Shown: positions 10,604 through 61,721 of the stretch, piece by piece
How positions within the stretch are numbered: position 1 is the first letter of the stretch
How the letters are laid out: each line of letters starts with the position of its first letter
The notes under the pieces: generated by a model
What the model was told of the DNA's origin: nothing
Databases searched by the model: none
Seen by the model: only the letters and a program-made list of their open reading frames with translations
Made by a program: the position numbers and the translations under genes
Source of the DNA: a virus
Taxonomy: Duplodnaviria; Caudoviricetes
DNA: 64,000 nt
IMG/VR virus record: IMGVR_UViG_2706796476_000001
Location: 87,418-151,417 of that record
Direction: 5' to 3' (one strand)

Positions 10604-11432
10604 GACGATTACCTCCGTTTCTGAAGAAGCCGTTAAGCCCGTCAGTGGAAGGTTTACGTTTCGGATCAATCATTTCCTGTACTTCTTCGTTACTTGCTCC
10701 TAGCTCGAATGCCTCTTTATCAATAAATATGTCTTCTCTTTTTAGAAGAAGTTTCTGCTGCATCCGTTCAGCTTTTACTTGTTGAGTCGGTGCGTACCGG
10801 TGCTCTTTGAGTAGGTCCGCTACCATGTATCTTAAAGTTGTCATAATGTTTATGGAGATGACTTTACCTTTTAACTTTTCGTTAGGGAAAAACAAGTTGC
10901 TCTTAAAGTCCACGGTGTAGTCTTGTCCTTCAACCAGCTCGCCATTAATTGACATAGCTAAGGTAATTTCTTTAACATCGTACACCATAAAAAATCCATT
11001 CTTGATCCGTCTGTCTGAGACGTCGAAAATAAAGGACTGTGACACGCTAGTATGCGGTAACGTTATCCGATCTCGGAACGATATTGTTAACGATCTGTCT
11101 TGCGGAGTGCCGATGGCTGTCCCGGAATCCATGAGTCCTAGGTCCCCGTTAAATAAACCTTTCTCCTGAGATTGCACCATAAGGTCAATACGGATAGGAG
11201 GGAGATAACCAATTCCCCTCCCTCTACAAATTTTGCAGGACTGATTTGGCTGTCTCGTACTACGGTCTCGGCAAGGGCAAAGATAGGATCGTTCCCAAAG
11301 GGCGGGCATACTGACATTGAGTGTTGCAGCGTCAAGCATATCTGCCCTTATGTTAGCTTGGGACATAGACCCATTAATAGCAGGTCTCTCAGTAGCTGGT
11401 GTACTTCCCAGTATCGCTGGTCTCTCTGACAT
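10590..11432 (-). CDS. Head-tail connector/neck protein
   Basis: LWERSYLCPC...CKICRGRG zinc motif typical of this Herelleviridae neck protein. Confidence 0.7.
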   Translation of the reverse strand: MSERPAILGSTPATERPAINGSMSQANIRADMLDAATLNVSMPALWERSYLCPCRDRSTRQPNQSCKICRGRGIGYLPPIRIDLMVQSQEKGLFNGDLGLMDSGTAIGTPQDRSLTISFRDRITLPHTSVSQSFIFDVSDRRIKNGFFMVYDVKEITLAMSINGELVEGQDYTVDFKSNLFFPNEKLKGKVISINIMTTLRYMVADLLKEHRYAPTQQVKAERMQQKLLLKREDIFIDKEAFELGASNEEVQEMIDPKRKPSTDGLNGFFRNGGNRLEES

Positions 11433-11445
11433 GATTTACCCTCCT

Positions 11446-12318
11446 TTAGATAAGTCCTAGATTGCTTCCGTAGTATGATTTTAAGCCTACACGGAGCTTC
11501 TCGATATCTTCGTTGAGCTGAACAATATCTGCCGATGCTCCACCATACATAGCACTTTGAGTGGTGTCGATACTTTGTGAAATTCCATCAATGTCTATCG
11601 ACATATTCGCAATACCCGCACCAATGATGAGTCTTCCCCACTGCTCGAACACTTCTTTAAGAGCTAGCTTAATGATCATATTCCATAAGTCAGGGTGCAT
11701 TTCATTAGGTGCTGTAACTCCTCGTCTTGACGGTGGAAGCATTCCAGCCACATATTCCACATGGAACATTTGAGGAGCGTAGTGTCTTCCGCTTGTTTGT
11801 GGCAGCCCGGATATAGCAGGGTAACCAGTAAAAGCTTGAACTAGAGATAGTCCATCATTACCTCCGGAGAGCAGCGTATTCGGCATCATTTGTAGATGTC
11901 CCGGAAGATTATATACTCTCCACCATCGAGTAGGATATCTGTATAATGTTCCTTCTCCGTATTCAAGGGTAACTTTCTCTACCTGTAGAATAGGTTTGTG
12001 GAAAGTGTGTATAAACGTGTAGCTAGTGTAATCGTTACTGTGGAAGTCGTGGTGCTCGGTCAGAACTCTAGGGAGGATTACGATGTCTAACATTTTCTCA
12101 GCTTGTGCAACAGCAGCCTCGATTTTAGATTCGTAGAACGCATCCGGTAGATATTCACCAGTCCTTGGATCAGTAACACTAACCCCGAAGTGGTTCAACT
12201 TTACAGCATCTGTAGTAAGCCCGTAGTCTTTCAGCGTGTATTTGTTTACATCCTCGAGGTTGATATTCTTGGGGTTATTGTGCCCATACGGTTGTCCCGT
12301 TTCTTCGTTAGTAAACAC
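11446..12318 (-). CDS. Head-tail adaptor protein
   Basis: C-terminal GAGIA..SIDIDGISQSIDTTQSAMYGGASA; synteny. Confidence 0.7.
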   Translation of the reverse strand: MFTNEETGQPYGHNNPKNINLEDVNKYTLKDYGLTTDAVKLNHFGVSVTDPRTGEYLPDAFYESKIEAAVAQAEKMLDIVILPRVLTEHHDFHSNDYTSYTFIHTFHKPILQVEKVTLEYGEGTLYRYPTRWWRVYNLPGHLQMMPNTLLSGGNDGLSLVQAFTGYPAISGLPQTSGRHYAPQMFHVEYVAGMLPPSRRGVTAPNEMHPDLWNMIIKLALKEVFEQWGRLIIGAGIANMSIDIDGISQSIDTTQSAMYGGASADIVQLNEDIEKLRVGLKSYYGSNLGLI

Positions 12319-47339: not shown

Positions 47340-47428
47340 TTCATCCGCTCCCTGTATGTAATGTTTTATTTCTAACTTTAGTATATCATGAGGGTTGACT
47401 TTGTGTCAACCCTTTTAGTGAAAAAAGT

Positions 47429-47647
47429 TTAGTTTAATTCTTTTAGTTGGCGTTCCACCTCATCAAGGTCTTCCTGTGCTTCATGGGCACAATCCATAAG
47501 CCCTTCACGGTTGAACTCGTATTCCTCACCATCCGGCATACGGTCCACGTCTTCCCACAACTGTTCAATCATTTCTTCTAGTTCCGTTTTCTGCTTAAGT
47601 AATTCCTCTTTTTTCTTCTTAAGTAATTCCTCTTTAGTGAATGTCAT
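47429..47647 (-). CDS. Small acidic coiled-coil early protein
   Basis: Own cassette promoter and RBS. Confidence 0.8.
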   Translation of the reverse strand: MTFTKEELLKKKKEELLKQKTELEEMIEQLWEDVDRMPDGEEYEFNREGLMDCAHEAQEDLDEVERQLKELN

Positions 47648-47737
47648 ATTAACCCGCTCCCCTTATGTAATGTTTTATTTCTAACTTTAGTATATCATGA
47701 GGGCTGACACTATGTCAACCCTTTTAGTGAAAAGTTT

Positions 47738-47986
47738 TTAAAGTGTGAAAGCCGTGTTGAAATTTTCAATTTGAATCATGCCGCCGTTATTGAATATCTG
47801 CATATCAGCGACAATATCCCCTATGATGTGAGAAAGATCGAACTGAATCATGACATCGTCGTATAACTCACTGTTTCGCTTGTTCTTCCATACAGGTAAA
47901 TAGTTGATAGTGCTACTCCTCATATACCGCTTTACATTCTCCCTGTCTGTATACCCTAATACCGTTTGACTAGTCATTGTGTACAA
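47738..47986 (-). CDS. Early hypothetical protein
   Basis: Overlaps the upstream gene. Confidence 0.7.
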   Translation of the reverse strand: MYTMTSQTVLGYTDRENVKRYMRSSTINYLPVWKNKRNSELYDDVMIQFDLSHIIGDIVADMQIFNNGGMIQIENFNTAFTL

Positions 47987-48260
47987 CCCCTATCCAGCTT
48001 TCCATATACTCGTGTACCTCATGTTCATCGTCTGTACGAATCGCAATGAGTTCACATGTCCAAGATGTCACAGGTTTAGCATGAATGATTAAATAGTCAG
48101 TGGTTATCGTCTCCCCTGCAATAGTAAGACCGTAAGCGTCAAATATCACGTAGCTATCTTGGACAACTCCCTCATACTCATAGAAGTCATACCCACCCTG
48201 CACCGCTTGATTAATCACGTCTAATAATTCCTCTTTGTTAATAACTGTTTCTTTTCTCAT
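47970..48260 (-). CDS. Early acidic hypothetical protein
   Basis: Cassette promoter and RBS. Confidence 0.8.
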   Translation of the reverse strand: MRKETVINKEELLDVINQAVQGGYDFYEYEGVVQDSYVIFDAYGLTIAGETITTDYLIIHAKPVTSWTCELIAIRTDDEHEVHEYMESWIGVVHND

Positions 48261-48347
48261 GTCATCCGCTCCTTTATGTATTGCTTTATTTCTAACTTTA
48301 GTATAACATGAGGGCTGACACTATGTCAACCCCTTTAGTGAAAAAGA

Positions 48348-48776
48348 TTATAAACCTTTGATCAGGTCATAAAGCTCATCAGACATAGCGGCAACTACCA
48401 CAGGATATATAGACTCTGCAAACTCATGGTTTCTAGCCCTCACAATCAGCTCGGCAATGTCTGAAAGGTTCATATCAAGTTCTAAATGAGGGTAAGAGCG
48501 GCTGAACGTTTCAAGGTCTCTTGAATATTTGTAACAGATAAGAAACTCATCTTCTACATCGTATGCATCGCTTTGTGTTAGTAAAACGGCGCTATACGGA
48601 TCATCCCTAAATTCCTTATTGAAAAACTCCTCTGTGTTACCGTGTACAGTAAACCCAAATAGCTCACTACAGTCCGTGTTCAGTCCTTCTAATATCTCTG
48701 CTAGTTCTCCAATGTTATTGATCAAGTAGTCCTGTACCGCTTCTAGACGCTCTTCTCTGTTTTCCATTCTATTCAT
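48348..48776 (-). CDS. Early acidic protein, YL..N family
   Basis: VQDYLINN...NTEEFFN..F...PY. Confidence 0.8.
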   Translation of the reverse strand: MNRMENREERLEAVQDYLINNIGELAEILEGLNTDCSELFGFTVHGNTEEFFNKEFRDDPYSAVLLTQSDAYDVEDEFLICYKYSRDLETFSRSYPHLELDMNLSDIAELIVRARNHEFAESIYPVVVAAMSDELYDLIKGL

Positions 48777-48784
48777 CCCCCTTG

Positions 48785-49036
48785 TTAGTTTAGTTCGTCA
48801 ATCATAGCCCAAAATGTTTCTACATGGTCTTGCATAGGGATATTATCTTGTCTGAGTGTGGATTCTCGTTCCATCATGAAACCGCCCATAAGTACCCACG
48901 CACGTTCAGCGGATAAGCTCATGATTCTTTCTCCCGTGCCCGCTGCGATCACTTCCCTATATCCGTCACCGTCACAGTATGCTTTATACAACAACCTGCC
49001 TAGTCTCTCTAATTCCTGTTCTGTTAAAATATCCAT
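48785..49036 (-). CDS. Early hypothetical protein
   Basis: Cassette promoter and RBS. Confidence 0.8.
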   Translation of the reverse strand: MDILTEQELERLGRLLYKAYCDGDGYREVIAAGTGERIMSLSAERAWVLMGGFMMERESTLRQDNIPMQDHVETFWAMIDELN

Positions 49037-49107
49037 ATGTAACCCCTCCTAATTGTTATTTCTAACTTTAGTATATCATGAGGGTTGATTTACTGTCAAC
49101 CCTTATT

Positions 49108-49229
49108 TAAAAATTCATCCTGTCTAATGACTCCCACGACACTAGACAGGATAGGACAGGCTCACGAAACCCGCCCACCTTCCGTAAAGAAGGTTCAAAT
49201 ATCACGGTATCACGTAAGTTTGTTGCATC
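49108..49229 (-). ncRNA. Candidate ~120-nt three-hairpin small RNA
   Basis: Own TTGACA-17-TATACT promoter (about 49234-49262); three hairpins then a U-tract; no RBS. Confidence 0.65.
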
Positions 49230-49277
49230 TTTAGTATACACTATAACAAATACCGTGTCAACATCTTTTTTTAAGAC

Positions 49278-49321
49278 ATATCGTGCATCGTATTAATAAA
49301 TATCGTGCATCGTATTAATAA
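49278..49321. repeat. 22-bp tandem duplication
   Basis: ATATCGTGCATCGTATTAATAA twice, spanning the stop of 49293..49664. Confidence 0.9.
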
Positions 49322-49664
49322 ATACCGCTCTGCTGTCTGCTCTGTTATCATACACCTCTGCTTCTAGTCCTATCTCATCCACAGGGTAGCATACAATAGC
49401 GTCTACCGCCAACTCTTCCGGTGTGTTGCTGATAGTGCCTAGAATATGTGTCATGTACACAGGATCAAGTTCGTTAATATCTATAATACCTTTAGCAACG
49501 ATGAAAGCAGGATGATCGTGTACAGTCATATCCAACCACGTCACCGTCTTTACCTTCCCGTTAGGCATATCTTTAGTAGTCGTATAAACTTCTGCCCCGT
49601 TCTGCCCTACCCTAAAATGAAACCATGCGCCACCATCATCCGGTAGTCTTTTAACCTCTGCCAT
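49293..49664 (-). CDS. Early hypothetical protein, related to the N-terminal part of 58477..59118
   Basis: Cassette promoter; D(D/H)GG...R start and (V/I)DA(I/V)..(Y/W).(P/S)V..(I/L)G. Confidence 0.8.
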   Translation of the reverse strand: MAEVKRLPDDGGAWFHFRVGQNGAEVYTTTKDMPNGKVKTVTWLDMTVHDHPAFIVAKGIIDINELDPVYMTHILGTISNTPEELAVDAIVCYPVDEIGLEAEVYDNRADSRAVFINTMHDIY

Positions 49665-50088
49665 ATGTATCAGCTCCTTTTCTAACTTTAGTATATCACG
49701 AGGGTTGATTTAATGTCAACCCTTTTAGTGAATGTTTGAATTGTTTGACAACTATTACGATAGTTTTCAGAATATTTAGACTTATACCATTGATATTTGT
49801 TATAATTTACGATTGTTTGTGGTACGATGCGTATAGAACCCCGTATTTGCCCCTTTATAGCTCCGTAGAGCGGTTTTATATGCCGAGTAGACCAATTACA
49901 CTAGATAACCCTTAAAAATCCGCCCTGCGCCGTCCTGTCCATCTAGATGCGAGTGACAAAGTCTAGCTTACGGCTCCTAGGAGATCGACGCCCCGGGCTT
50001 TGAAAGTTTTTCGTTTTTTATTCGTTTGTCTGTTTGAAAGTTTTTTATATCTCTCTATACGTCCTGTATATTTTTCTCGTACTTATGT

Positions 50089-50301
50089 TCATGCTTCTTC
50101 TTTTGTTCCATGATGAATAAATATATAAGTATCGTCGTACTCTCCTTCACCTTCTAACCTGTATGGCGTATATCCTAAAGTATCAATGGCGTTATCGAAA
50201 ATTGAAACACTGTCAATGGTTCCTTCATTATCAAACGGCTCAAAGCCTAGTTCAATCTGTAGTTGTTCCATTTCATGTTCAAGTAGAATTAATTTTTTCA
50301 T
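50089..50301 (-). CDS. Early acidic hypothetical protein
   Basis: Cassette promoter and RBS. Confidence 0.8.
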   Translation of the reverse strand: MKKLILLEHEMEQLQIELGFEPFDNEGTIDSVSIFDNAIDTLGYTPYRLEGEGEYDDTYIFIHHGTKEEA

Positions 50302-50417
50302 GCTTACCCACTCCTTTATTTTATGTATTGCTATATTTCTAACTTTAGTATATCATGAGGGTTGATTTGTTGTCAACCCTTATTTTTATCTTTCTTCCGG
50401 TTAGTTAGTACACACGC

Positions 50418-50627
50418 CTATTTCAGATACGCAATGTACCATACACCCTCTTGTACTTGTTGTTGTCGTACTGTAATTGGTTCTGAACAATGGTAAAACG
50501 AATACCAATTGTTTAAAACACATCTTACGTGTACACCATTGTTTGCCCACATCTTTAAAGCCTTCCATAAGGGAACTTCTATCCAGTCTAAACCTTCACC
50601 GTACCACTTTTCTTTGTTAGCTTCCAT
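50418..50627 (-). CDS. Early Trp-rich hypothetical protein
   Basis: Cassette promoter and RBS. Confidence 0.8.
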   Translation of the reverse strand: MEANKEKWYGEGLDWIEVPLWKALKMWANNGVHVRCVLNNWYSFYHCSEPITVRQQQVQEGVWYIAYLK

Positions 50628-50731
50628 AGGTTCCTCCCTCCTCCCCTTTGCTAATTTATGTATTGTTATATTTCTAACTTTAGTATATCATAAGGGTTGA
50701 TTTGTTGTCAACCCTTATGTTTATCTTTTTT

Positions 50732-51118
50732 TTACGGTCGTGAGTACTTCTGTAGTAGTGTAACGTCTTTTGTGAAATACAAACATGTTAGTTCGTGAGT
50801 CATAAAGGTTTCAGTAATGTTTGTTATGTTCTCTCTTATGGTGTCAATGTATTCTTGTTTGGTTACTGAATGGATTTCGTTGTCTTCTAGGTAGAAGTAA
50901 GGGTGATCAATATTGTATACTCCTTTACTGATAGCCTGTGCCAATTCATAAGGTTTATTAAACATTGCGTTTACGGTGTCTTGTATGTTTCTATATACAT
51001 GAAACTCTTCTAGTGTACGGTCATAGTGGTATAGGCTGTCTATAGTGTCTATTGTTAAATCTAGGTTGGATAACACGTATTCTTTTATATCGTTAAACTC
51101 TTGTTTTCTTGTTGACAT
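50732..51118 (-). CDS. Early protein, YL..N family
   Basis: IKEYVLSNL...YHYD.TL...YRN...F.KPYE. Confidence 0.8.
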   Translation of the reverse strand: MSTRKQEFNDIKEYVLSNLDLTIDTIDSLYHYDRTLEEFHVYRNIQDTVNAMFNKPYELAQAISKGVYNIDHPYFYLEDNEIHSVTKQEYIDTIRENITNITETFMTHELTCLYFTKDVTLLQKYSRP

Positions 51119-51177
51119 TGGTTGGTTCCTCCTTCTTGGAAAGTGCTTCGCTGCGTGACATCTTTACATTTTACACT

Positions 51178-51399
51178 TTATCCTTGCAGGAAACAAGCAT
51201 ATATGTTGTCTTTTGTGTCTTCTAATATGCCTAGTCTCTCTATGGTCAGTGTATTATTGATTGTTCCGTCTCCATAATTTGAGTCATATTCTTTTATTGC
51301 GTCTATTTCTTGTTGTGTAAGGTACACGGTCTTCCCTGTCGTTAGTTTTGCGTATATGAAAGCCAGTTCACCCATAGCGGTTCCCTCCTCTGCACTCAA
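51178..51399 (-). CDS. Early hypothetical protein
   Basis: RBS GAGGAGG precedes the internal ATG (MGELAF), the likelier start. Confidence 0.7.
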   Translation of the reverse strand: MSAEEGTAMGELAFIYAKLTTGKTVYLTQQEIDAIKEYDSNYGDGTINNTLTIERLGILEDTKDNIYACFLQG

Positions 51400-51402
51400 T
51401 TC

Positions 51403-51819
51403 CTACCTGCTCCCTTGCTCCTGCTCATATTTCTTTCTGTTGTCGATAAAGCTTTTCAGTTCGTCAGTGAAATTAAATTCTAATTCGTCTGAATAGCTCA
51501 CTAGTGTAAGGGCAATATCTGTGATATTATTTTGAATGGCTAATTCTTGGTTACGGGCTGATGTGGACCAAATTTGATTCCCGTTGAAGAAGAAGTAAGG
51601 CAGGTGCCGATCGTATTTACCGCTTTTAGTAGCGTTAAGTGCTTCACTTGGTGTAGCGAATAAGCCGTCTATGATTTCGTTTGTGTTTCGGTAGGCTTGC
51701 ACGTCCTGTAATGAGTAGTCATAGTGGTATACCACGTCTATATAGTCCATCGTCTCTTCTAGGTTGCTTAACAGGTATCTTTCAATAGCTTCCCTTGCTT
51801 TTATTCTTTCATCCATCAT
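51403..51819 (-). CDS. Early protein, YL..N family
   Basis: IERYLLSNL...YHYDYSL...YRN...FATPSE. Confidence 0.8.
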   Translation of the reverse strand: MMDERIKAREAIERYLLSNLEETMDYIDVVYHYDYSLQDVQAYRNTNEIIDGLFATPSEALNATKSGKYDRHLPYFFFNGNQIWSTSARNQELAIQNNITDIALTLVSYSDELEFNFTDELKSFIDNRKKYEQEQGSR

Positions 51820-51884
51820 TTGTGGTTCCTCCTCTATTTTGTGTTAACATACTATTTATTTACCTATGGTGTGGTGTGGTTTGT

Positions 51885-52322
51885 TTAGTTTCGTCTTCTA
51901 GGGAATGCGTCGGATAGTTGGTCTATTAGCTCGGCAATATCCGGTTTAAAGTTAAAGTCTATTTTGTCTACACTGTGAAGAATCAGTACAACAATGTCTA
52001 GCATGTCAGATTCTAGCAGGTATGGTATCTTTCCAAGGTCAAACGACGTTACGTCTCCATTTCTATGATACATGACATAGTCATCATAATCATACTGGCT
52101 ATGATCTATGGCTTGAATGGCTTCGTAAGGTGTTGTAAAGGTTGAGTTAAAGAAAGTTGCGTCGTTACAGTGTACCGTGTATTCTACTTCGTCTTTCAGT
52201 TGGTCATTGATCTCATACATGTGGTCGAATGCTTCGTCAATGTTCTTTAGAAATAGGCTAGCGATCTGATACATGATCTCTCTGTCTGTTTCTGTGTAGT
52301 GTCTTCCATTTGATTGAATCAT
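51885..52322 (-). CDS. Early protein, YL..N family
   Basis: LFLKNI...NDATFFNSTFTTPYEA. Confidence 0.8.
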   Translation of the reverse strand: MIQSNGRHYTETDREIMYQIASLFLKNIDEAFDHMYEINDQLKDEVEYTVHCNDATFFNSTFTTPYEAIQAIDHSQYDYDDYVMYHRNGDVTSFDLGKIPYLLESDMLDIVVLILHSVDKIDFNFKPDIAELIDQLSDAFPRRRN

Positions 52323-52325
52323 TTG

Positions 52326-52496
52326 TCATTTCCCCTTTGTATTATATTGGATTGTTCTTTCTTGTAGGTTCACAATGGCAATGCGTCCTATACTATCCCA
52401 GTAGGTATATGTATTGTCGTTGTTAGCGTATTGGAATTTGTAGTCATCTTCTTTTAACTGGTTCATGAGTTGGTTGACCGTTCTGAACTTCTCCAT
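52326..52496 (-). CDS. Small early protein (56 aa, not in the ORF track)
   Basis: Cassette promoter, RBS GAGGTG; MEKFRTVNQLMNQLKEDDYKFQY... Confidence 0.75.
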   Translation of the reverse strand: MEKFRTVNQLMNQLKEDDYKFQYANNDNTYTYWDSIGRIAIVNLQERTIQYNTKGK

Positions 52497-52598
52497 GTGT
52501 GTCACCTCTCTATGCTTTTAGTGTAACATGAGGGCTGACATTGTGTCAACCCTTTTCTTTTGTTAAAAGACAATGATTTGTTTCTATTCTTCCATTTA

Positions 52599-52784
52599 TT
52601 AATCAATATGAATAATATCGTATTGTTTATCAGCAGCTAGAGAATCGACATAATCGCTTGCATCTTTTTCGGTTGGGAAAATTCTTTCTAAATATTCTAC
52701 ACGTTCACCCTCTTCTCTATCCCATACATTAACTTCCCAATCGTTATCATACTCTGAAAATTGAATTTGGACATTTAATAACAT
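52599..52784 (-). CDS. Small acidic early protein
   Basis: Cassette promoter and RBS. Confidence 0.8.
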   Translation of the reverse strand: MLLNVQIQFSEYDNDWEVNVWDREEGERVEYLERIFPTEKDASDYVDSLAADKQYDIIHID

Positions 52785-52867
52785 ACGTAAAACCTCCTTT
52801 AGTTGGTAACTTTAGTGTAACATAAGGGCTGACTTACTGTCAACCCTTTATGAAAAGAAAGTTTTTT

Positions 52868-53116
52868 TTAACCTCTGATAATTTGTATACAATCGTCAGA
52901 CAGGTCAACAATCATAAGGTAAAGTTCTTGACTTAATGACTCGATGTATGTCGTCTCGTTCGCCCTAACGATAGTTTGAGCAATGTCTGAAATGCTCACA
53001 TTATGATCAGCAGATTTTTTCAGTTCCGCTAGGATAGCTATTGTTTCTTTTGGGTTCTCCTGTAAGTAAACCTTAATGGGTTCAAGTTGCTGTAGTACAT
53101 GCTCTCTGTAATTCAT
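52868..53116 (-). CDS. Early protein, internally shortened YL..N family member
   Basis: IKVYLQEN...ISDIAQTIVRA...LSQELY. Confidence 0.75.
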   Translation of the reverse strand: MNYREHVLQQLEPIKVYLQENPKETIAILAELKKSADHNVSISDIAQTIVRANETTYIESLSQELYLMIVDLSDDCIQIIRG

Positions 53117-53232
53117 ATGTATTACCTCCTTTAGTTGGTAACTTTAGTGTAACATAAGGGCTGACTTACTGTCAACCCGTTGTGAAAAGAAAGTTTTTTT
53201 TATTTTGTAGCGTTCCTAACAACGGTCAAACA

Positions 53233-53445
53233 TTAGTCCTCCCATTCCATGTCATCAAAGTCAGTGACAAGGAATCTAGATACTTTGTTTTGTATTTCAT
53301 GGCTTCTTTGTGCTTTACCCTGTTGCATTCCTACTAAAAAGGCTTCGTGAATCATGTCATTCATAATGTCCACCTGTTTAGAAATACCCTCTTCAATGAT
53401 TCTTCTTGATGCTATCCGCTGTAGTTCATTAATTTTGTTTAGCAT
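53233..53445 (-). CDS. Early hypothetical protein
   Basis: Overlaps the upstream gene. Confidence 0.7.
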   Translation of the reverse strand: MLNKINELQRIASRRIIEEGISKQVDIMNDMIHEAFLVGMQQGKAQRSHEIQNKVSRFLVTDFDDMEWED

Positions 53446-53759
53446 TTCCCTTTCCCCCTCACATTCATAATACCCGCACTGGCTTTCTTGTCATTACCTG
53501 TTAACCAACATTCGGCGCCTTCTTGATAGTAAACTCCCCAATACTTATCTTTCCCTTCATCATTGTAAACAATCCAGTGATCATGTAATATGTGAAGGTC
53601 TTCGCTTTTCCCTTTGTAGGGCTGTAAATAGTCTCCTACGATGTCATATACCTGTGAAAGTAAACTTTGATACGGAACGTCACGATTTTCAATAATTCCG
53701 GTCAATGCGTGCCCTTTGTGTTCTAGTTCTAACTTGTGGTTATACTCAGTTCTTAACAT
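53439..53759 (-). CDS. Early hypothetical protein
   Basis: Cassette promoter and RBS. Confidence 0.8.
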   Translation of the reverse strand: MLRTEYNHKLELEHKGHALTGIIENRDVPYQSLLSQVYDIVGDYLQPYKGKSEDLHILHDHWIVYNDEGKDKYWGVYYQEGAECWLTGNDKKASAGIMNVRGKGKC

Positions 53760-53837
53760 ATGTATTACCTCCTTTAGATGGTAACTTTAGTGTAACATGA
53801 GGGCTGACATACTGTCAACCCCTTTAGTGAAAAAACT

Positions 53838-54080
53838 TTAGATGAAATCGTTTTGGCTAATTCCGTTGTACTGCATGTCGTTCATGTTTCCCCGTGCCCG
53901 TGCTTCTTCTAACTGGCTTTCTAGGTCTTCTAGAATGTCTTCTAGTTCTTCGATATCACCGTTGATGTCGTCTAGCTCTTCGTTTGTAGCTTCTTCAAGA
54001 TCAGCATATAGCCTTTCAAGTTCGTCTTCTAGGTCGTCAATTCTTTTTTGTAGCTCATCAACTCGTGTACTGTTAGGCAT
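53838..54080 (-). CDS. Highly acidic coiled-coil early protein
   Basis: D/E-rich heptads; cassette promoter. Confidence 0.8.
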   Translation of the reverse strand: MPNSTRVDELQKRIDDLEDELERLYADLEEATNEELDDINGDIEELEDILEDLESQLEEARARGNMNDMQYNGISQNDFI

Positions 54081-54160
54081 GTGTAAAAACCTCCTTCATC
54101 TGATAAACCTAGTGTAACATGAGGGCTGACATAGTGTCAACCCCTTTTAACACATTTTTT

Positions 54161-54571
54161 TTATTCTTCGTCCTCTTCGTCTTCGATTTGCTCAATAATA
54201 GAAACCAGTTCATCAGATACGTCGATATTGTCGATATTTCTAATTACAGCGTCTGCAATATCTTCGATATCGTCTTTCATTTCTTTAATGATTGTATACT
54301 CATTAGCGGTCTCAAGGTTACCGTATGCATTAAACCGTACATAGTCATCACCGTAGTTAAAGTCACCAAAACAAACTGCCCTTACTACTTCATCTGTTTT
54401 ACCTTCAAAGAACATATTAAAAAATTCTTCGTCGTTCACATACCAGTCATAGTGGTCTAGCTCACCATTCCATGAAATAACTTCACGAACCGCCGCTTGT
54501 AACTCCTCTTCATTTTCTAGTAAATACGCTTTTACCTCTTCAAGTACTTTTTTCTCTGTCATATTAAACAC
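54161..54571 (-). CDS. Highly acidic early protein, YL..N family
   Basis: VKAYLLEN...NDEEFFNMFF...DDYVRFNAYGNLET. Confidence 0.8.
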   Translation of the reverse strand: MFNMTEKKVLEEVKAYLLENEEELQAAVREVISWNGELDHYDWYVNDEEFFNMFFEGKTDEVVRAVCFGDFNYGDDYVRFNAYGNLETANEYTIIKEMKDDIEDIADAVIRNIDNIDVSDELVSIIEQIEDEEDEE

Positions 54572-54806
54572 GTCCTTTCGAGTAGTTGCCCGCCGTTTGT
54601 TCGGCTTTCCATAGAATATGTTGTGCCTGTTTCAAGTCTTCCAGTGCGCCGCCTGTGTAGATGTCTTTTTGTAACTCCCTTTGAATAGTTACAAGAAGAT
54701 CAACTTTGTTATCCCACCATGCGCCGTGTTCTAGTTCGTTTTCGATTCGTGCCGCTGCGACTGCTAAATCTTGTGCTTCTCTTAAAAGATCGTTTACTGT
54801 TATCAT
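54564..54806 (-). CDS. Early hypothetical protein
   Basis: Cassette promoter and RBS. Confidence 0.8.
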   Translation of the reverse strand: MITVNDLLREAQDLAVAAARIENELEHGAWWDNKVDLLVTIQRELQKDIYTGGALEDLKQAQHILWKAEQTAGNYSKGRV

Positions 54807-54882
54807 GTGTTTTATACCTCCTGTATTGTTTGTAACTTTAGTGTATCATAGGGTTGATTAGCCGTCAACCCTTATTTGAAAA

Positions 54883-55104
54883 TTAATTGTCAAAATCGTA
54901 AGTTGTTACGTTCTGTTCTAAAGCCCATGCGCCTGCATCTTCTATATACTGGATAAAATCCGTCAAACGGTCGGTGTTCATCTGCGCGTCAGAAAGTAAT
55001 CCGTATAAAGAGCCTTCAAACGTCCCCTGACGAATTTCATATGTCCGCTTGACTCCATAACTTACAGTGTTGATAAGTACAAAATCTTTTGTCACTATGA
55101 CCAA
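54883..55104 (-). CDS. Early hypothetical protein
   Basis: Cassette promoter and RBS. Confidence 0.75.
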   Translation of the reverse strand: MVIVTKDFVLINTVSYGVKRTYEIRQGTFEGSLYGLLSDAQMNTDRLTDFIQYIEDAGAWALEQNVTTYDFDN

Positions 55105-55182
55105 CTCCCTTTAGTTTATGTAGTTCGGTGTAACTGTCTTTCTAGTTCTAGTGTATCGCAGGGTTGATATAATGTCAACCCT

Positions 55183-55743
55183 TTATTTAATGAAACTTAA
55201 AACTTTTTTATGAAGTTTGAAACTTTCCATGTTTACCGTGTAGTCATCAAAAAGTAACATGTAGTTGTCAATATAGTGGTGAACAAAATGGTCAAATTGA
55301 TTGTTTTCGTCATGGCAAAAGTTTATATCTTGTTGGAACCGTACCGAAACGGCGTTTGCGGCTTCTTGACAGGCGTTGAATGCGGCACGCTGATAGAAAG
55401 TATTATCCGGCTCATCTGATAGCTTACAAAGGCTCTCACGCATCATATTCATATGGTACTGTGCGTCATCGGTAAGTAAAGCAGGAATTGAAGAATCCAT
55501 GTCCGAGAAGCCCATATAAAATTCTTTTAAGAAGTCTTTATGAACACGGATGAAGCCGCCAACGTCTCCTAATCTGTAATAATCGACATACTCGCAAAGG
55601 AATGACATTTTTTCTGCCACATAATGCCGTTCAGTTTTCAAAAGGTCTTCCGATACGTTGTATCTTAATTTTGGGTTGTTACTCCATACTTGGCGTAATT
55701 CATATGTATTTAGTTCACGTAAATTCTTTTCCATTGTAGTCAC
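55183..55743 (-). CDS. Early protein, paralog of 56307..56873
   Basis: EL...EL..VW.NNPKLR. Confidence 0.8.
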   Translation of the reverse strand: MTTMEKNLRELNTYELRQVWSNNPKLRYNVSEDLLKTERHYVAEKMSFLCEYVDYYRLGDVGGFIRVHKDFLKEFYMGFSDMDSSIPALLTDDAQYHMNMMRESLCKLSDEPDNTFYQRAAFNACQEAANAVSVRFQQDINFCHDENNQFDHFVHHYIDNYMLLFDDYTVNMESFKLHKKVLSFIK

Positions 55744-55795
55744 TCCTATTTGTTGGTATCTTTAGTATAGCAAAGGGTTGATATAATGTCAACCC

Positions 55796-56092
55796 TTATT
55801 TATGAAAATTTTCTGCTACCGCTGCGTGAAGATAAACGGCTTTTTGTACGTTATAAGGTAAGTCACCCCATTCTATCTCTTTCCCTATATCTTCGTGTAG
55901 TTCCTCATCATCGTATAAAGGGATATCATCAGAAAACGACCATACACCCTCAAAAGGGTTTGCACTACATGCTACGGTGTATACCGTTCCCTCCTCCATG
56001 TCAATAAGCTGAACTGAATACCGGTCAAGCGTACGCCCTTCGTTGTCATATGCTTTAAGAAAACCTTCCGGTTCAATACTATAGTTAGTCAT
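55796..56092 (-). CDS. Early hypothetical protein
   Basis: YDNEGRTLDRYSV; IGKEIEWGDLP..VQ. Confidence 0.8.
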   Translation of the reverse strand: MTNYSIEPEGFLKAYDNEGRTLDRYSVQLIDMEEGTVYTVACSANPFEGVWSFSDDIPLYDDEELHEDIGKEIEWGDLPYNVQKAVYLHAAVAENFHK

Positions 56093-56104
56093 GCCTATTC
56101 CTCC

Positions 56105-56230
56105 TTACAAGAATTTTTTATGTAGTGCCGCAAACTGCTTATCTAGTTGGGCAACCATTTCATTTTCAGCCTTAAGGCGCTTCTCAATTCGCTTTCTATT
56201 TGCTAGTGTGTCCATTAACGCTTTCCACAT
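56105..56230 (-). CDS. Small early protein (41 aa, not in the ORF track)
   Basis: Cassette promoter, RBS AAGGAG; MWKALMDTLANRKRIEKRLKAE... Confidence 0.7.
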   Translation of the reverse strand: MWKALMDTLANRKRIEKRLKAENEMVAQLDKQFAALHKKFL

Positions 56231-56306
56231 GTCACCCAACTCCTTTTCTTGATAACTCAATGATATCAAAGGGTTGATATAATGTCAACCCTTATTTAAA
56301 CTTTTT

Positions 56307-56873
56307 TTAAAAACTTTCTGTAACTGTTTTGAATAGCTTATAGTCGTTTTCCGGTTCTACATAGTACTCATCATCCAAACGGTTATCCACATAAAACTCT
56401 AGAAAGTAGTCAAATGCGTTTTCATCTGTGTAACAGGATTCCACTGCATCTTTCATATTGTTTGCTAACAGTTGGGCAATGCTATCACAGACGTTTTCAA
56501 ACTTCTCGTACAGCTCATCGCATTCCTCATCAGTATCAGCGTTTAAGTAAGCTTCCTGCGCTTGCTTCATACTGTCTAATGCTTTTCTGTCTTCTTCTTC
56601 CGTTGTAAATAAACCCATGTCTTTAGAAAGTTTTTCCGCACCTTCCAGGAACCCTTGATAATCGTCAATAGTCATATAAACGTGTGAGAACCCGCCAATG
56701 CTCCAATTAGATAAGTACGATTTTACATAGTGGAGACGATCACCCACCCAATACATTTCACCTTCTGCGGCATCTTCTTGCACCTGTTGGCGCAATTTCG
56801 GGTTGTTCTCCCAAACCTTTTTCAGCTCATCCTGTGTTAGTTCTTCGATTAGTTTCTTTTCCATTCTTACCAA
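56307..56873 (-). CDS. Early acidic protein, paralog of 55183..55743
   Basis: EELTQDELKKVWENNPKLR. Confidence 0.8.
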   Translation of the reverse strand: MVRMEKKLIEELTQDELKKVWENNPKLRQQVQEDAAEGEMYWVGDRLHYVKSYLSNWSIGGFSHVYMTIDDYQGFLEGAEKLSKDMGLFTTEEEDRKALDSMKQAQEAYLNADTDEECDELYEKFENVCDSIAQLLANNMKDAVESCYTDENAFDYFLEFYVDNRLDDEYYVEPENDYKLFKTVTESF

Positions 56874-56965
56874 CTCCTTTAAGTTTATGTATTACGTGTT
56901 CCTGTCTTGCTTAACTTAATGATATCAAAGGGTTGATATAATGTCAACCCTTATTTAAACTTTTT

Positions 56966-57214
56966 TTAAACCCGTGTATAAAAATCATTGTACGCCGTTT
57001 CTTTAATGCTTGTAAATAACCCTTCCGATAAAACATGGATGCTTGCATCATATACCCACACCGCAAATTCTGCGTGTTTAGCGTGCTTTGCCAGTACTAC
57101 TTGAAGATGATCACAAGCCTTATTATACAGCGATAAAGGACGGTTCGTAACAAGCTCAAACCCTTTTGATTCTACGGATTCTGTGATTAATTGACCTAGT
57201 AAAAAATCTGTCAT
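56966..57214 (-). CDS. Early hypothetical protein
   Basis: RBS AGGAGGG. Confidence 0.75.
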   Translation of the reverse strand: MTDFLLGQLITESVESKGFELVTNRPLSLYNKACDHLQVVLAKHAKHAEFAVWVYDASIHVLSEGLFTSIKETAYNDFYTRV

Positions 57215-57234
57215 CGTTTCCCCTCCTAGACAGG

Positions 57235-57387
57235 TTACATAGTGTTAGATGCTATGATCACAGAAAGGAGAAGAATAAATACGAATCCCGTTAATAGGTA
57301 AGTTCCATAAAATAAGACTGCCGAGTCTTTTTCTAGTTCTTCTGCTTGAAAGAAATACAGATTGATTTTTCTAATAATGTTTTTCAT
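57235..57387 (-). CDS. Small membrane protein (50 aa, not in the ORF track)
   Basis: RBS AGGAGGG; MKNIIRKINLYFF... with a C-terminal TM helix. Confidence 0.7.
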   Translation of the reverse strand: MKNIIRKINLYFFQAEELEKDSAVLFYGTYLLTGFVFILLLSVIIASNTM

Positions 57388-57410
57388 TCGTTTTCCCTCC
57401 TGTAATTACA

Positions 57411-57662
57411 TCATAGGATATAACAAGCATACCTGTCAATAATGTTTGTGTCAATGGGTTTTTCGTTGATAACTTCACCACGGGGAACCCACGATAAAAC
57501 ACCCGTGTTAAAATAAGTTTCAGCATGGTTAAAACTGTTCCGCAAACTTAAAACAAGTTCAGACGCCTGTCCGTGGCTCTCTAATGTGAGGAAAACGTCT
57601 TTACCCTTGTAACGAAACTTTACAGAATACATAAGATCAGCCCCGTATATAAAGAGTATCAT
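57411..57662 (-). CDS. Early hypothetical protein (start likely the downstream ATG, MYSVKF)
   Basis: The cassette promoter overlaps the track's start. Confidence 0.7.
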   Translation of the reverse strand: MILFIYGADLMYSVKFRYKGKDVFLTLESHGQASELVLSLRNSFNHAETYFNTGVLSWVPRGEVINEKPIDTNIIDRYACYIL

Positions 57663-57697
57663 AAGGGTTGATATAATGTCAACCCTTATTTTATTGT

Positions 57698-58210
57698 TTA
57701 TGCGTTTTGTTCTTCTTGATCTGTGTTGTTCTCGATGATCTCTAATACCTTGGCGTCAAACTGCTCAAATGTGTTGTTGTGGTCTACATCGGTACATAGT
57801 TCCTCAAGGTTAATAGCAATATTGTCATAAACCTCTCCTGCCACGTTTTTATCTTTTAAAGATTCGTTAACCTGTGCAACTGCTCGATTGTACATAATGT
57901 CATCGAGGTTTTTGTACAGCGATTCGGTGTAATACTGGTAATAGCCGCCCGCAAAAAGGTTAGTAAGGCTGAAATTGTTTGTATCAAGACCCGTCTGAAA
58001 TACAAATTCTTTGATATAATATTCGATGTCTTCCGCATTCTTCCATAACTCATAATTATAGATTGGAGTAAATGTATCGGCTACCTCCATAATAGCGTCA
58101 CAAATGTACATGCTTCCGTCATAATCTCTTTCTAGTGATTTCAGTGCGTCTGCCTCATCTTCTAAAATGTCAATTAGTTCATACTCTCTAATTTCTAACA
58201 TGTAAAACAT
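57698..58210 (-). CDS. Ocr-like acidic DNA-mimic (putative anti-restriction) protein
   Basis: ICDAIMEVADTFTPIYNYELW aligns with the recalled T7 Ocr segment [21 protein letters not shown]; very acidic. Confidence 0.65.
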   Translation of the reverse strand: MFYMLEIREYELIDILEDEADALKSLERDYDGSMYICDAIMEVADTFTPIYNYELWKNAEDIEYYIKEFVFQTGLDTNNFSLTNLFAGGYYQYYTESLYKNLDDIMYNRAVAQVNESLKDKNVAGEVYDNIAINLEELCTDVDHNNTFEQFDAKVLEIIENNTDQEEQNA

Positions 58211-58273
58211 CTCCTTTAAGTTTGTTATGTTTTTAGTATATTGCAGGGTTGATGTAATGTCAACCCTTTTTTT

Positions 58274-58396
58274 TTATTTCTTGCTGCTGCTATTTCCTGC
58301 ACACTGGGCACATTTATTTCTATCATGTGATTCCCCTACCAAGTAAGCAACATTACATGTTTCGCATAGGTCTACCCGATAATCAGCAAGTTTCAT
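58274..58396 (-). CDS. Small zinc-finger-like early protein (40 aa, not in the ORF track)
   Basis: Cassette promoter, RBS GGGAGG; CETC...CAQC. Confidence 0.7.
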   Translation of the reverse strand: MKLADYRVDLCETCNVAYLVGESHDRNKCAQCAGNSSSKK

Positions 58397-58476
58397 ATGT
58401 AACAACCTCCCTTATTTGATAAACCTAGTGTAACATGAGGGCTGACATAGTGTCAACCCCTTTTGTGAAAAAAGTT

Positions 58477-59118
58477 TTAAAGATTTAAATTAACAAGTTC
58501 ACGGGCTTTACCTTTTAAAGAAACAAAGGTACCTTCGTCAGTAACAGTCAACTTTACATGCCCTTTGTCTGATAGGTTGACGAAACAATCAATCGCACCT
58601 ACGACGTATAGTCCTAAATCGTCTATGATGTCTTTAGTAGACACGCCGCTTTCTGTTCCTTTAGCAAATGCCGATACGGTTTCATTATCTGCGATATAGG
58701 TTAGAATACGTCCTTCCGTCGAGGACACATCAAGTACCCTTACATCTTCACAAATGCGCCATACTGATAATTCGGTCAAAACTTCCCACCATGAATCGCA
58801 AATCGTTTGAGTACCGCCCAAACTTTCTACACTCCAATACTGGACGGCGTCAATGATAAAATGCTCAACATCTTCTAGGGCTTCATCTAGGCTCTCAAAC
58901 CCTCCGTATGATGCTACGTCTTCCGGATGTGCGATGTCCTCTAATGAGACAGTTAATTCACTTAATAGGTAGAAAGTAGGTTCATCTCCTGTAGTGGGTT
59001 GTACTTCTACATAGACGTATTCTCCTTCGTTGTCTTCGTCCTCTCTAATGAAAATGCCCCCGTGATCTTTCCAGTCGATGTCACCATAATTAGTCCAATG
59101 TTTTTCCATTTTCTCCAA
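58477..59118 (-). CDS. Early acidic protein with a C-terminal winged-helix-like segment
   Basis: NYGDIDWKDHGGIFI; C-terminal STKDIIDDLG...L.DKGHV. Confidence 0.8.
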   Translation of the reverse strand: MEKMEKHWTNYGDIDWKDHGGIFIREDEDNEGEYVYVEVQPTTGDEPTFYLLSELTVSLEDIAHPEDVASYGGFESLDEALEDVEHFIIDAVQYWSVESLGGTQTICDSWWEVLTELSVWRICEDVRVLDVSSTEGRILTYIADNETVSAFAKGTESGVSTKDIIDDLGLYVVGAIDCFVNLSDKGHVKLTVTDEGTFVSLKGKARELVNLNL

Positions 59119-61607: not shown

Positions 61608-61721
61608 GGTTGTTCCTCCTCTGTGTAGGGAGCTACTAAGTGATTAGCAGCCCGTTGTTATTAACTACATTTTATTCTAGGTTTGACTATTTGTCAACAT
61701 TGTATTTTTAACTTCGCTAAT

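Follow-up and report, generated by a model that had tools for sequence, protein, structure and literature searches.

To our knowledge, the terminal-repeat "host-takeover" regions of SPO1-like phages have hitherto been interpreted as nothing but arrays of genes for small proteins. Phage lambda makes oop, a non-coding RNA of ~77 nt transcribed by the host polymerase from a dedicated promoter of the early region, ended by a hairpin terminator and antisense to the 3' end of cII, while the pseudo-ToxI repeats and CRISPR-repeat mimics (Racr) are anti-defence phage RNAs that copy a host repeat.

Promoter-early stem-loop (PeSL) cassettes have been described in the T4-type phages RB49 and phi1 (Arbiol et al. 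2010, PMC2839356). Each PeSL ends with the Shine-Dalgarno sequence (SD) and start codon of an ORF, the cassettes being repeated to ~50 copies per genome; the stem-loop may overlap the -35 element, and PeSLs act as terminators and as recombination sites (PMC2839356). In the SPO1-like phage SP82, Bs-RNase III cuts early-RNA stem-loops that have internal loops, and a segment of early RNA stabilises the RNA downstream of it, as cited in PMC4838370, PMC1935012 and PMC7509114 from the primary sources (Panganiban & Whiteley 1983; Mitra & Bechhofer 1994; Hue et al. 1995). Non-coding RNAs with no assigned function have also been reported in the Kayvirus phages K and 515A1 (PMC10383478) and in the Listeria P100-like phage CKA15 (PMC12282133).

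Here we describe a module of Agatevirus phages that is most probably a gene for a small non-coding early RNA, and which we put forward as a candidate for one. It lies in the window, that is, the whole stretch of 64,000 nucleotides analysed (bases 87418-151417 of a virus record of 151,417 bp). In common with PeSLs, the module has a strong sigma-70-type early promoter preceded by A/T-rich DNA, together with a stem-loop of the terminating or attenuating kind; it also lies in a part of the genome that is plastic and holds small orphan early genes, and keeps its identity there while its neighbours shuffle. It nevertheless falls outside the PeSL class, having promoter and stem-loop with neither SD nor ORF, a hairpin that is single-copy in unique sequence and no sequence in common with PeSLs; moreover, its hairpin lies 16-75 nt downstream of its own start and would therefore be transcribed from its own promoter. 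Like oop, it has a dedicated promoter, a hairpin at the end and a short non-coding RNA, in this case a predicted one; unlike oop, it is overlapped by no gene on the opposite strand, and no complementary phage target was found. The SP82 sites, compared by their description in the citing papers, are likewise sequence-conserved stem-loops between early genes of a same-family Bacillus myophage, the action of the module at the RNA level being our proposal; those sites are described as lying within polycistronic RNA, several per genome and with internal loops, whereas the module has one perfect 13-bp hairpin and a promoter of its own. The Kayvirus and P100-like loci resemble it in bearing a promoter and no ribosome-binding site in large Firmicute myophages, yet they lie near tRNA genes, are long (GOLLD/ROOL-like) or without intrinsic terminators and peak at 15-25 min, while the module is short, sits in the terminal repeat under an early-type promoter and shows no detected sequence relation to them.

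Genomic setting and layout of the module

Judged by sequence identity, the window comes from an Agatevirus-like Bacillus myophage of the phiAGATE group, the module region being 76-81% identical to those of SDFMU_Pbc, phiAGATE and Bobb (Bacillus phages; Herelleviridae, Bastillevirinae, Agatevirus). In phiAGATE the matching DNA sits within the annotated long terminal repeat (LTR) of 2,669 bp, and the terminal hairpin of the module occurs twice per genome in both phiAGATE and Bobb, once in each repeat. On the minus strand at 49735-50011 lies a G+C-rich non-coding block of ~280 nt, 82-87% identical in SDFMU_Pbc, Bobb and phiAGATE and unannotated there. Because this block spans the inner boundary of the phiAGATE repeat (corresponding to about 49994 of the window), the terminal repeat of the window would run from ~46.9 to 50.0 kb with the module inside it, and the block itself is probably a genome-end or packaging-related sequence; its fold is no better than that of shuffled sequences (z = +1.1). 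Just beyond the presumed boundary, at 49997-50044 (minus strand), the motif AAAAACTTTCAAA occurs twice, and phiAGATE has an annotated 8-nt tandem repeat at the equivalent position.

The module and its immediate neighbours comprise the following features, given in the direction of transcription.

49293..49664, minus strand: upstream 123-aa gene, with homologues and with no hairpin of its own
49266..49272, minus strand: A7 tract, UP element-like, just 5' of the -35 and after the old stop codon of the upstream gene
49256..49261, minus strand: -35 TTGACA, identical in 12/12 copies, with no GGG...CCC palindrome
49233..49238, minus strand: -10 TATACT, 17 nt from the -35; TATACT in 11 copies, TACACT in Bobb
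49226 (G), minus strand: putative transcription start, placed by alignment; 7th nt after the -10, a purine in every homologue
49195..49226, minus strand: 5' segment of ~32 nt, mostly unpaired, by alignment and fold
49177..49194, minus strand: hairpin 1, 7 bp (ACCUUCU/GGAAGGU), loop UUAC; long form only
49154..49176, minus strand: hairpin 2, 10 bp (GGGCGGGUUU/GAGCCUGUCC) with four G·U or U·G pairs, loop CGU; long and medium forms
49117..49152, minus strand: terminal hairpin, the universal core, 13-bp stem (AUCCUGUCUAGUG/CAUUAGACAGGAU), loop UCGUGGGAGU
49109..49116, minus strand: tail GAAUUUUU, presumed 3' end region, doubling as the A/T-rich stretch upstream of the next promoter (-35 at 49099)
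49070..49099, minus strand: next palindromic early promoter, TTGACA-18-TATACT, which drives gene 48785-49036 and abuts the module

The stretch after the promoter measures ~118 nt and ends in GAAUUUUU; its three hairpins, at 49194-49117, are those that the sequence-only reading had described. Hairpin 2 abuts hairpin 1 and is separated from the terminal hairpin by one nucleotide. The terminal stem contains 5 G-C pairs and no internal loop other than a U·U adjoining the loop, which is 10 nt long (49139-49130) and includes an inner C-G pair. At the other end of the predicted transcript, the 13-nt sequence GCAACAAACUUAC (49226-49214), conserved in the long and medium forms only, is common to the window, L012 and Bobb and has one change in L010, and the AUUUGAAC of the 5' segment has its counterpart in the CAUUnGAGC of the short forms. 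The segment also resembles the leaders of neighbouring cassettes, for example ...ATAACAAACTTAAAGGAG at promoter 58263, from which we suggest that the module may descend from a gene cassette that lost its ORF. Upstream, at the 3' end of gene 49293-49664, a 22-bp tandem duplication (two copies of TATTTATTAATACGATGCACGA, 49281-49324) is found in the window and not in L010 or L012; it shifts the frame, so that the protein ends ...HDIY in place of ...HDMS, and lengthens the gap before the module promoter.

The module is carried by 11 other sequences: the phages phiAGATE, Bobb and SDFMU_Pbc and eight metagenome or Logan contigs (L010 from a JGI metagenome; L012 and L103-L108 from Logan, reached through their flanking proteins). 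Partial matches to the 1-kb stretch that surrounds it occur in about 20 public runs from 12 studies. With the 21-nt hairpin core as query, IMG/VR returned only phiAGATE and Bobb, and the JGI metagenomes one match; the 151-kb genome holds no second copy of the module, and a BLAST search detected no paralogue. There is no mention of the module in the phiAGATE paper. Three forms can be distinguished. The long form, with the promoter and all three hairpins, is present in the window, L010 and L012; the medium form is that of Bobb, which has a shorter hairpin 2 and, in the place of hairpin 1, the different hairpin GGAAU-ACC-AUUCC; and the short form (phiAGATE, SDFMU_Pbc and L103-L108) consists of the promoter, 16-22 nt (A[C/U]CAUUnGAGCAUU...) and the terminal hairpin, giving a predicted RNA of ~60 nt. 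Comparison of the three defines promoter plus terminal hairpin as the universal core.

The module stays in place while the genes around it change. The gene downstream differs among the window, L010 and Bobb, which makes a role as leader for gene 48785-49036 specifically unlikely, and phiAGATE has one extra gene upstream. In SDFMU_Pbc, phiAGATE and L012/L103-L108 a homologue of a 142-aa protein directly follows the module, whereas in the window the module and the 142-aa family gene are separated by the 83-aa gene 48785-49036 and the palindromic promoter that belongs to it, an insertion peculiar to this phage; on this comparison, we regard the insertion as an example of cassette shuffling at promoter repeats.

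The promoter of the module also stands apart from the array in which it lies. From 47.4 to 58.5 kb there are 18 further leftward consensus promoters, all of which have GGGTTGAC-N5-GTCA(A/G)CCC over the -35, the palindrome having the form GGGTTGAC-N5-GTCAACCC, and an SD plus ATG within 25-45 nt downstream; A/T-rich stretches precede every promoter of the array. The earlier remark that the module has the only leftward consensus promoter without the palindrome holds within 47.3-59.6 kb, where it is also the only one without SD and ORF. Further right, the promoters at 61697 and 63125 likewise have no palindrome, but they do have genes. On the plus strand, the array palindromes (47340-58500) form good terminators, a hairpin followed by a T-run, and their architecture (a stem-loop overlapping the -35, an A/T-rich region upstream, SD and ATG downstream) fits that of the PeSLs whose stem-loop extends over the -35. 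Accordingly placed by analogy, a PeSL-type attenuator could equally be an alternative to the repressor binding first proposed for the palindromes, which may instead block antisense or read-through transcription. The escape of the module from repression, as proposed earlier, would depend on that repressor reading, itself a hypothesis. A search of the SPO1 terminal redundancy for an analogous ORF-less cassette yielded nothing comparable that stood out, and the SPO1 promoters are without the palindrome. Between genes 55 and 56 of the SPO1 host-takeover module (L011) there is an unannotated gap of 387 bp (11150-11536), in which a hairpin at 11516-11498 looks like a terminator and a site at 11202-11174 like a promoter.

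Conservation of the promoter and of the RNA fold

On the minus strand, the TTGACA-17-TATACT promoter proposed from the sequence is present at 49261-49233 and matches the sigma-A (sigma-70-type) consensus at 11/12 positions, with a perfect -35, a 17-nt spacer and 5/6 of the -10. A-rich stretches occupy the position of the A7 tract in all homologues, and the -10 with the initial transcribed sequence (TATACTAAAG; AAAG after the -10) is as in the gene-bearing promoters of the array. Across 7 distinct lineages, the hexamers are 97.6% identical and the spacers 57% (range 33-89%), with a spacing that is always 17-18 nt; retention of the hexamers while the spacers diverge points to selection on initiation itself, and the conservation of a dedicated promoter argues that selection sees the RNA product, not merely a hairpin in read-through mRNA. 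Metatranscriptome contigs from two soil samples (X19, X20) cover the module at low depth; since they also include the promoter, along with scattered neighbouring stretches, they could represent DNA or read-through and are silent on a discrete RNA either way.

Reading frames at the module give a consistent picture of a non-coding sequence, as far as comparison of the homologues can tell. Between promoter and hairpins there is no SD with a start codon, in keeping with the original observation of no ribosome-binding site. The leaderless 8-aa ORF (MQQTYVIP) that had been thought possible is rejected: it is kept in L012 only, reads GTG TAA in L010, is out of frame in Bobb and is missing from nine copies of the short and medium forms, and the putative start G49226 falls inside its ATG. 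We also discarded a 44-aa GTG ORF (49241-49107), which begins within the -10 and is missing from the short forms, and a 49-aa plus-strand ORF (49085-49234), which begins in the repeated palindrome and is apparently an artefact that recurs at other palindromes.

The RNA sequence itself is strikingly constant. Over the 86-nt structured body (49194-49109), the window has no difference from L010 and one from L012, which turns a G·U into a G-C pair, while identity between the window and L012 in the gene adjoining the module upstream is 76% overall and 69% if third codon positions are taken alone. The L103-L108 lineage shares 34/36 positions of the terminal hairpin and the whole loop with the window, although identity falls to 27% and 50% in the flanking proteins; across the homologues, the only loop change is one A>G in SDFMU_Pbc. 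A terminator would not need loop and stem to be this invariant, which argues that a specific partner recognises them.

Pairing is kept where the stem does vary. Among 10 sequences, 98.6% of the 140 cells of the terminal hairpin are paired and 2 cells are broken; five pairs vary, each by a one-sided G·U/U·G change that leaves it paired, and variants of the metagenome contigs at 49123 and 49127 also keep pairing. The differences in the 3' arm of hairpin 2 in L012 and Bobb are all C<->U exchanges opposite G. The covariation proposed as a check on the fold was found in no pair of the terminal hairpin in these 10 sequences, there being no double-sided compensatory change, so that the structure draws its support from conservation and wobble changes alone. 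These changes are strand-specific: in hairpin 2 and the terminal hairpin, 9/10 independent transitions at Watson-Crick pairs leave a G·U pair if the transcribed strand is read but would leave A·C if the opposite one were (binomial p about 0.011, n=10). The module folds at about -47.9 kcal/mol (z = -5.6) on the minus strand and at -31.7 (z = -3.9) on the plus strand, the sense fold is far more stable than the antisense fold in 6/6 homologues folded, and the short forms fold at -15 to -20 kcal/mol. The asymmetry, seen in the window and in all six homologues, bears out the sequence-only reading in its remark that the G-U pairs fit the minus strand. The substitution pattern as a whole fits an RNA read from the minus strand; neither a DNA operator nor a decaying remnant would readily account for it.

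With a probability of about 0.5, we read the module as a small early RNA that also terminates the transcript of the upstream gene and shields the next promoter. Agatevirus-type Bacillus phages would have in the module an independent early transcription unit without an ORF, placed within the long terminal repeat, at which host RNA polymerase with sigma-A would initiate at about G49226. The predicted product is a discrete non-coding RNA of ~118 nt in the window and ~60 nt in phiAGATE-type phages, whose functional core would be the terminal 13-bp hairpin with the invariant loop UCGUGGGAGU. Hairpin and GAAUUUUU would stop some or all of the transcripts, those coming from the upstream 123-aa gene among them, and so insulate the next promoter, and the released RNA would act in trans through a protein or RNA partner that recognises the hairpin and the loop sequence; in the long form, the 5' GCAACAAACUUAC segment may take part too. 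Of what had been proposed from the sequence, the non-coding early RNA with its own promoter is strengthened by the conserved hexamers, by the constancy of hairpin and loop and by the strand-specific wobble pairs, whereas the decoy, antitoxin and anti-defence functions attached to it have found no support.

Termination, processing and other readings of the hairpin

How well the hairpin terminates bears on each of the alternatives. The U-tract noted earlier does exist, as a U5 run at 49113-49109, but the tail reads GAA then UUUUU, so that the run starts 4 nt after the stem (4-8 nt away), and in Bobb it is interrupted (UUAUAAAU instead). Compared with an intrinsic terminator, the stem-loop is present, the U-tract is not within 0-2 nt of the stem and the loop is not of 3-8 nt; a terminator pattern scan did not list the site. 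By these classical criteria (a 10-nt loop, a displaced U-tract and none in Bobb) the terminal hairpin appears weak as a terminator, although a U5 run 4-8 nt from the stem may still allow partial termination.

An action in cis only would need no RNA product: the hairpin would serve as terminator or attenuator and as 3'-end stabiliser of the 123-aa gene, and would insulate the next promoter, while the promoter of the module would be the leftover of an ORF-less cassette and any short RNA a by-product. Several observations speak for it. Lacking any other hairpin, the 123-aa gene would be expected to send its transcript into the module and to share the terminal hairpin with it; the hairpin tail is also the A/T-rich upstream element of the next promoter, such stretches preceding all promoters of the array; the 5' segment is like the leaders of other cassettes; and PeSL cassettes unite strong early promoters with terminator stem-loops, and recombine (PMC2839356). 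A relic promoter should decay, however, and the hexamers and their spacing are kept in 12/12 copies across diverged spacers; a terminator needs structure and not sequence, yet the loop and nearly the whole stem are invariant in phages whose flanking proteins are down to 27-50% identity; and PeSL-type recombination of two cassettes would yield one chimeric cassette, not a promoter-hairpin-promoter arrangement. We therefore consider it unlikely that the module works in cis only.

Weak termination could also mean that polymerase, whether it started at the module promoter or further upstream, reads through into the downstream genes and that the module is a processing signal or leader, its hairpin being either a specific ribonuclease site of the Bs-RNase III type or a 5' or 3' stabiliser of the processed mRNAs. 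The weak terminator geometry and the lack of a U-tract in Bobb would be expected of such an element, a sequence-conserved hairpin suits recognition by a specific protein, and SP82 offers a precedent both for Bs-RNase III cleavage of stem-loops and for an RNA stabiliser (as cited in PMC4838370, PMC1935012, PMC7509114). Against this, the downstream gene has a full promoter right after the hairpin and varies among phages, so that a gene-specific leader is improbable; the 151-kb genome has one such hairpin, compared with the several related sites described for SP82; and its 13-bp perfect helix is without the internal loop that the citing papers give for the SP82 sites. On balance, processing or leader function likewise seems improbable to us.

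Very improbable, finally, is an element acting as DNA, in which the 13-N10-13 inverted repeat, centred ~71 bp upstream of the start of the next promoter, would be a protein-binding or recombination site and RNA structure would not matter: conservation does continue unbroken past the hairpin as far as the next -35, and in the PeSL study it was speculated that stem-loop motifs might be targets of DNA-binding proteins (PMC2839356), but the substitutions are strand-asymmetric (G·U if transcribed, A·C on the opposite strand), neither the conserved promoter that precedes the hairpin nor the two G·U-bearing hairpins of the long form would be explained, and dimeric operators do not typically take the form of a 36-bp repeat whose central 10 bp are conserved.

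Search for partners and significance of the proposed RNA

Searches for a family, target or host look-alike of the predicted small early RNA returned nothing beyond chance. Rfam 15, searched with 5 kb and then with the 181-nt module alone, gave no family at the gathering threshold, the best scores being 18.2 bits for BTnc201 (threshold 105) and 14.9 for Magnesium-II (threshold 40); the comparison with Rfam that had been suggested for this locus thus came out negative. ARAGORN detected no tRNA or tmRNA. Across the phage there is no complementarity of at least 13 nt to the module, and the two 12-mers considered as antisense targets, a number expected by chance, were set aside, both being in the same sense as the local gene. 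Among 457 phage translation-initiation regions, the best duplex energy was no better than with shuffled seeds. The 21-nt hairpin core had 0 exact matches in the genomes of 185,579 prokaryote species, and four Bacillus genomes (subtilis, pumilus and licheniformis groups) gave matches at chance level only; the recurring 14-mers among these fall in zwf (two, in sense orientation), a SulP-like transporter gene and prfB.

A decoy role, as antitoxin or in anti-defence, had been proposed from the sequence. As a small structured phage RNA that could titrate a host protein, the module does resemble pseudo-ToxI and Racr; unlike them, it has no tandem repeats (a ToxI-like search within the module found none), no Rfam family and no host copy of the 21-nt core. 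A host-takeover or counter-defence effector RNA whose loop would sequester a Bacillus ribonuclease, an RNA-binding regulator or a defence sensor, made from the first-expressed DNA, in the terminal repeat, at two copies per genome and from a promoter outside the control of the palindromes, is a reading that we regard as doubtful, and its anti-defence version as speculation.

The small early RNA that we favour would matter for how the terminal repeats of these phages are read. Being more conserved than any neighbouring protein and encoding no protein, it may represent a core early function of the Agatevirus group. The module is carried by isolated phages with laboratory hosts (phiAGATE, Bobb and SDFMU_Pbc), and the invariant 10-nt loop would, if a partner exists, offer a handle for pull-down. 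Should the effector reading be true, this would be a protein-titrating phage sRNA without a cellular counterpart; should the module be only an insulator, it would still exemplify a PeSL-like organisation of promoter and stem-loop cassettes in Gram-positive myophages.
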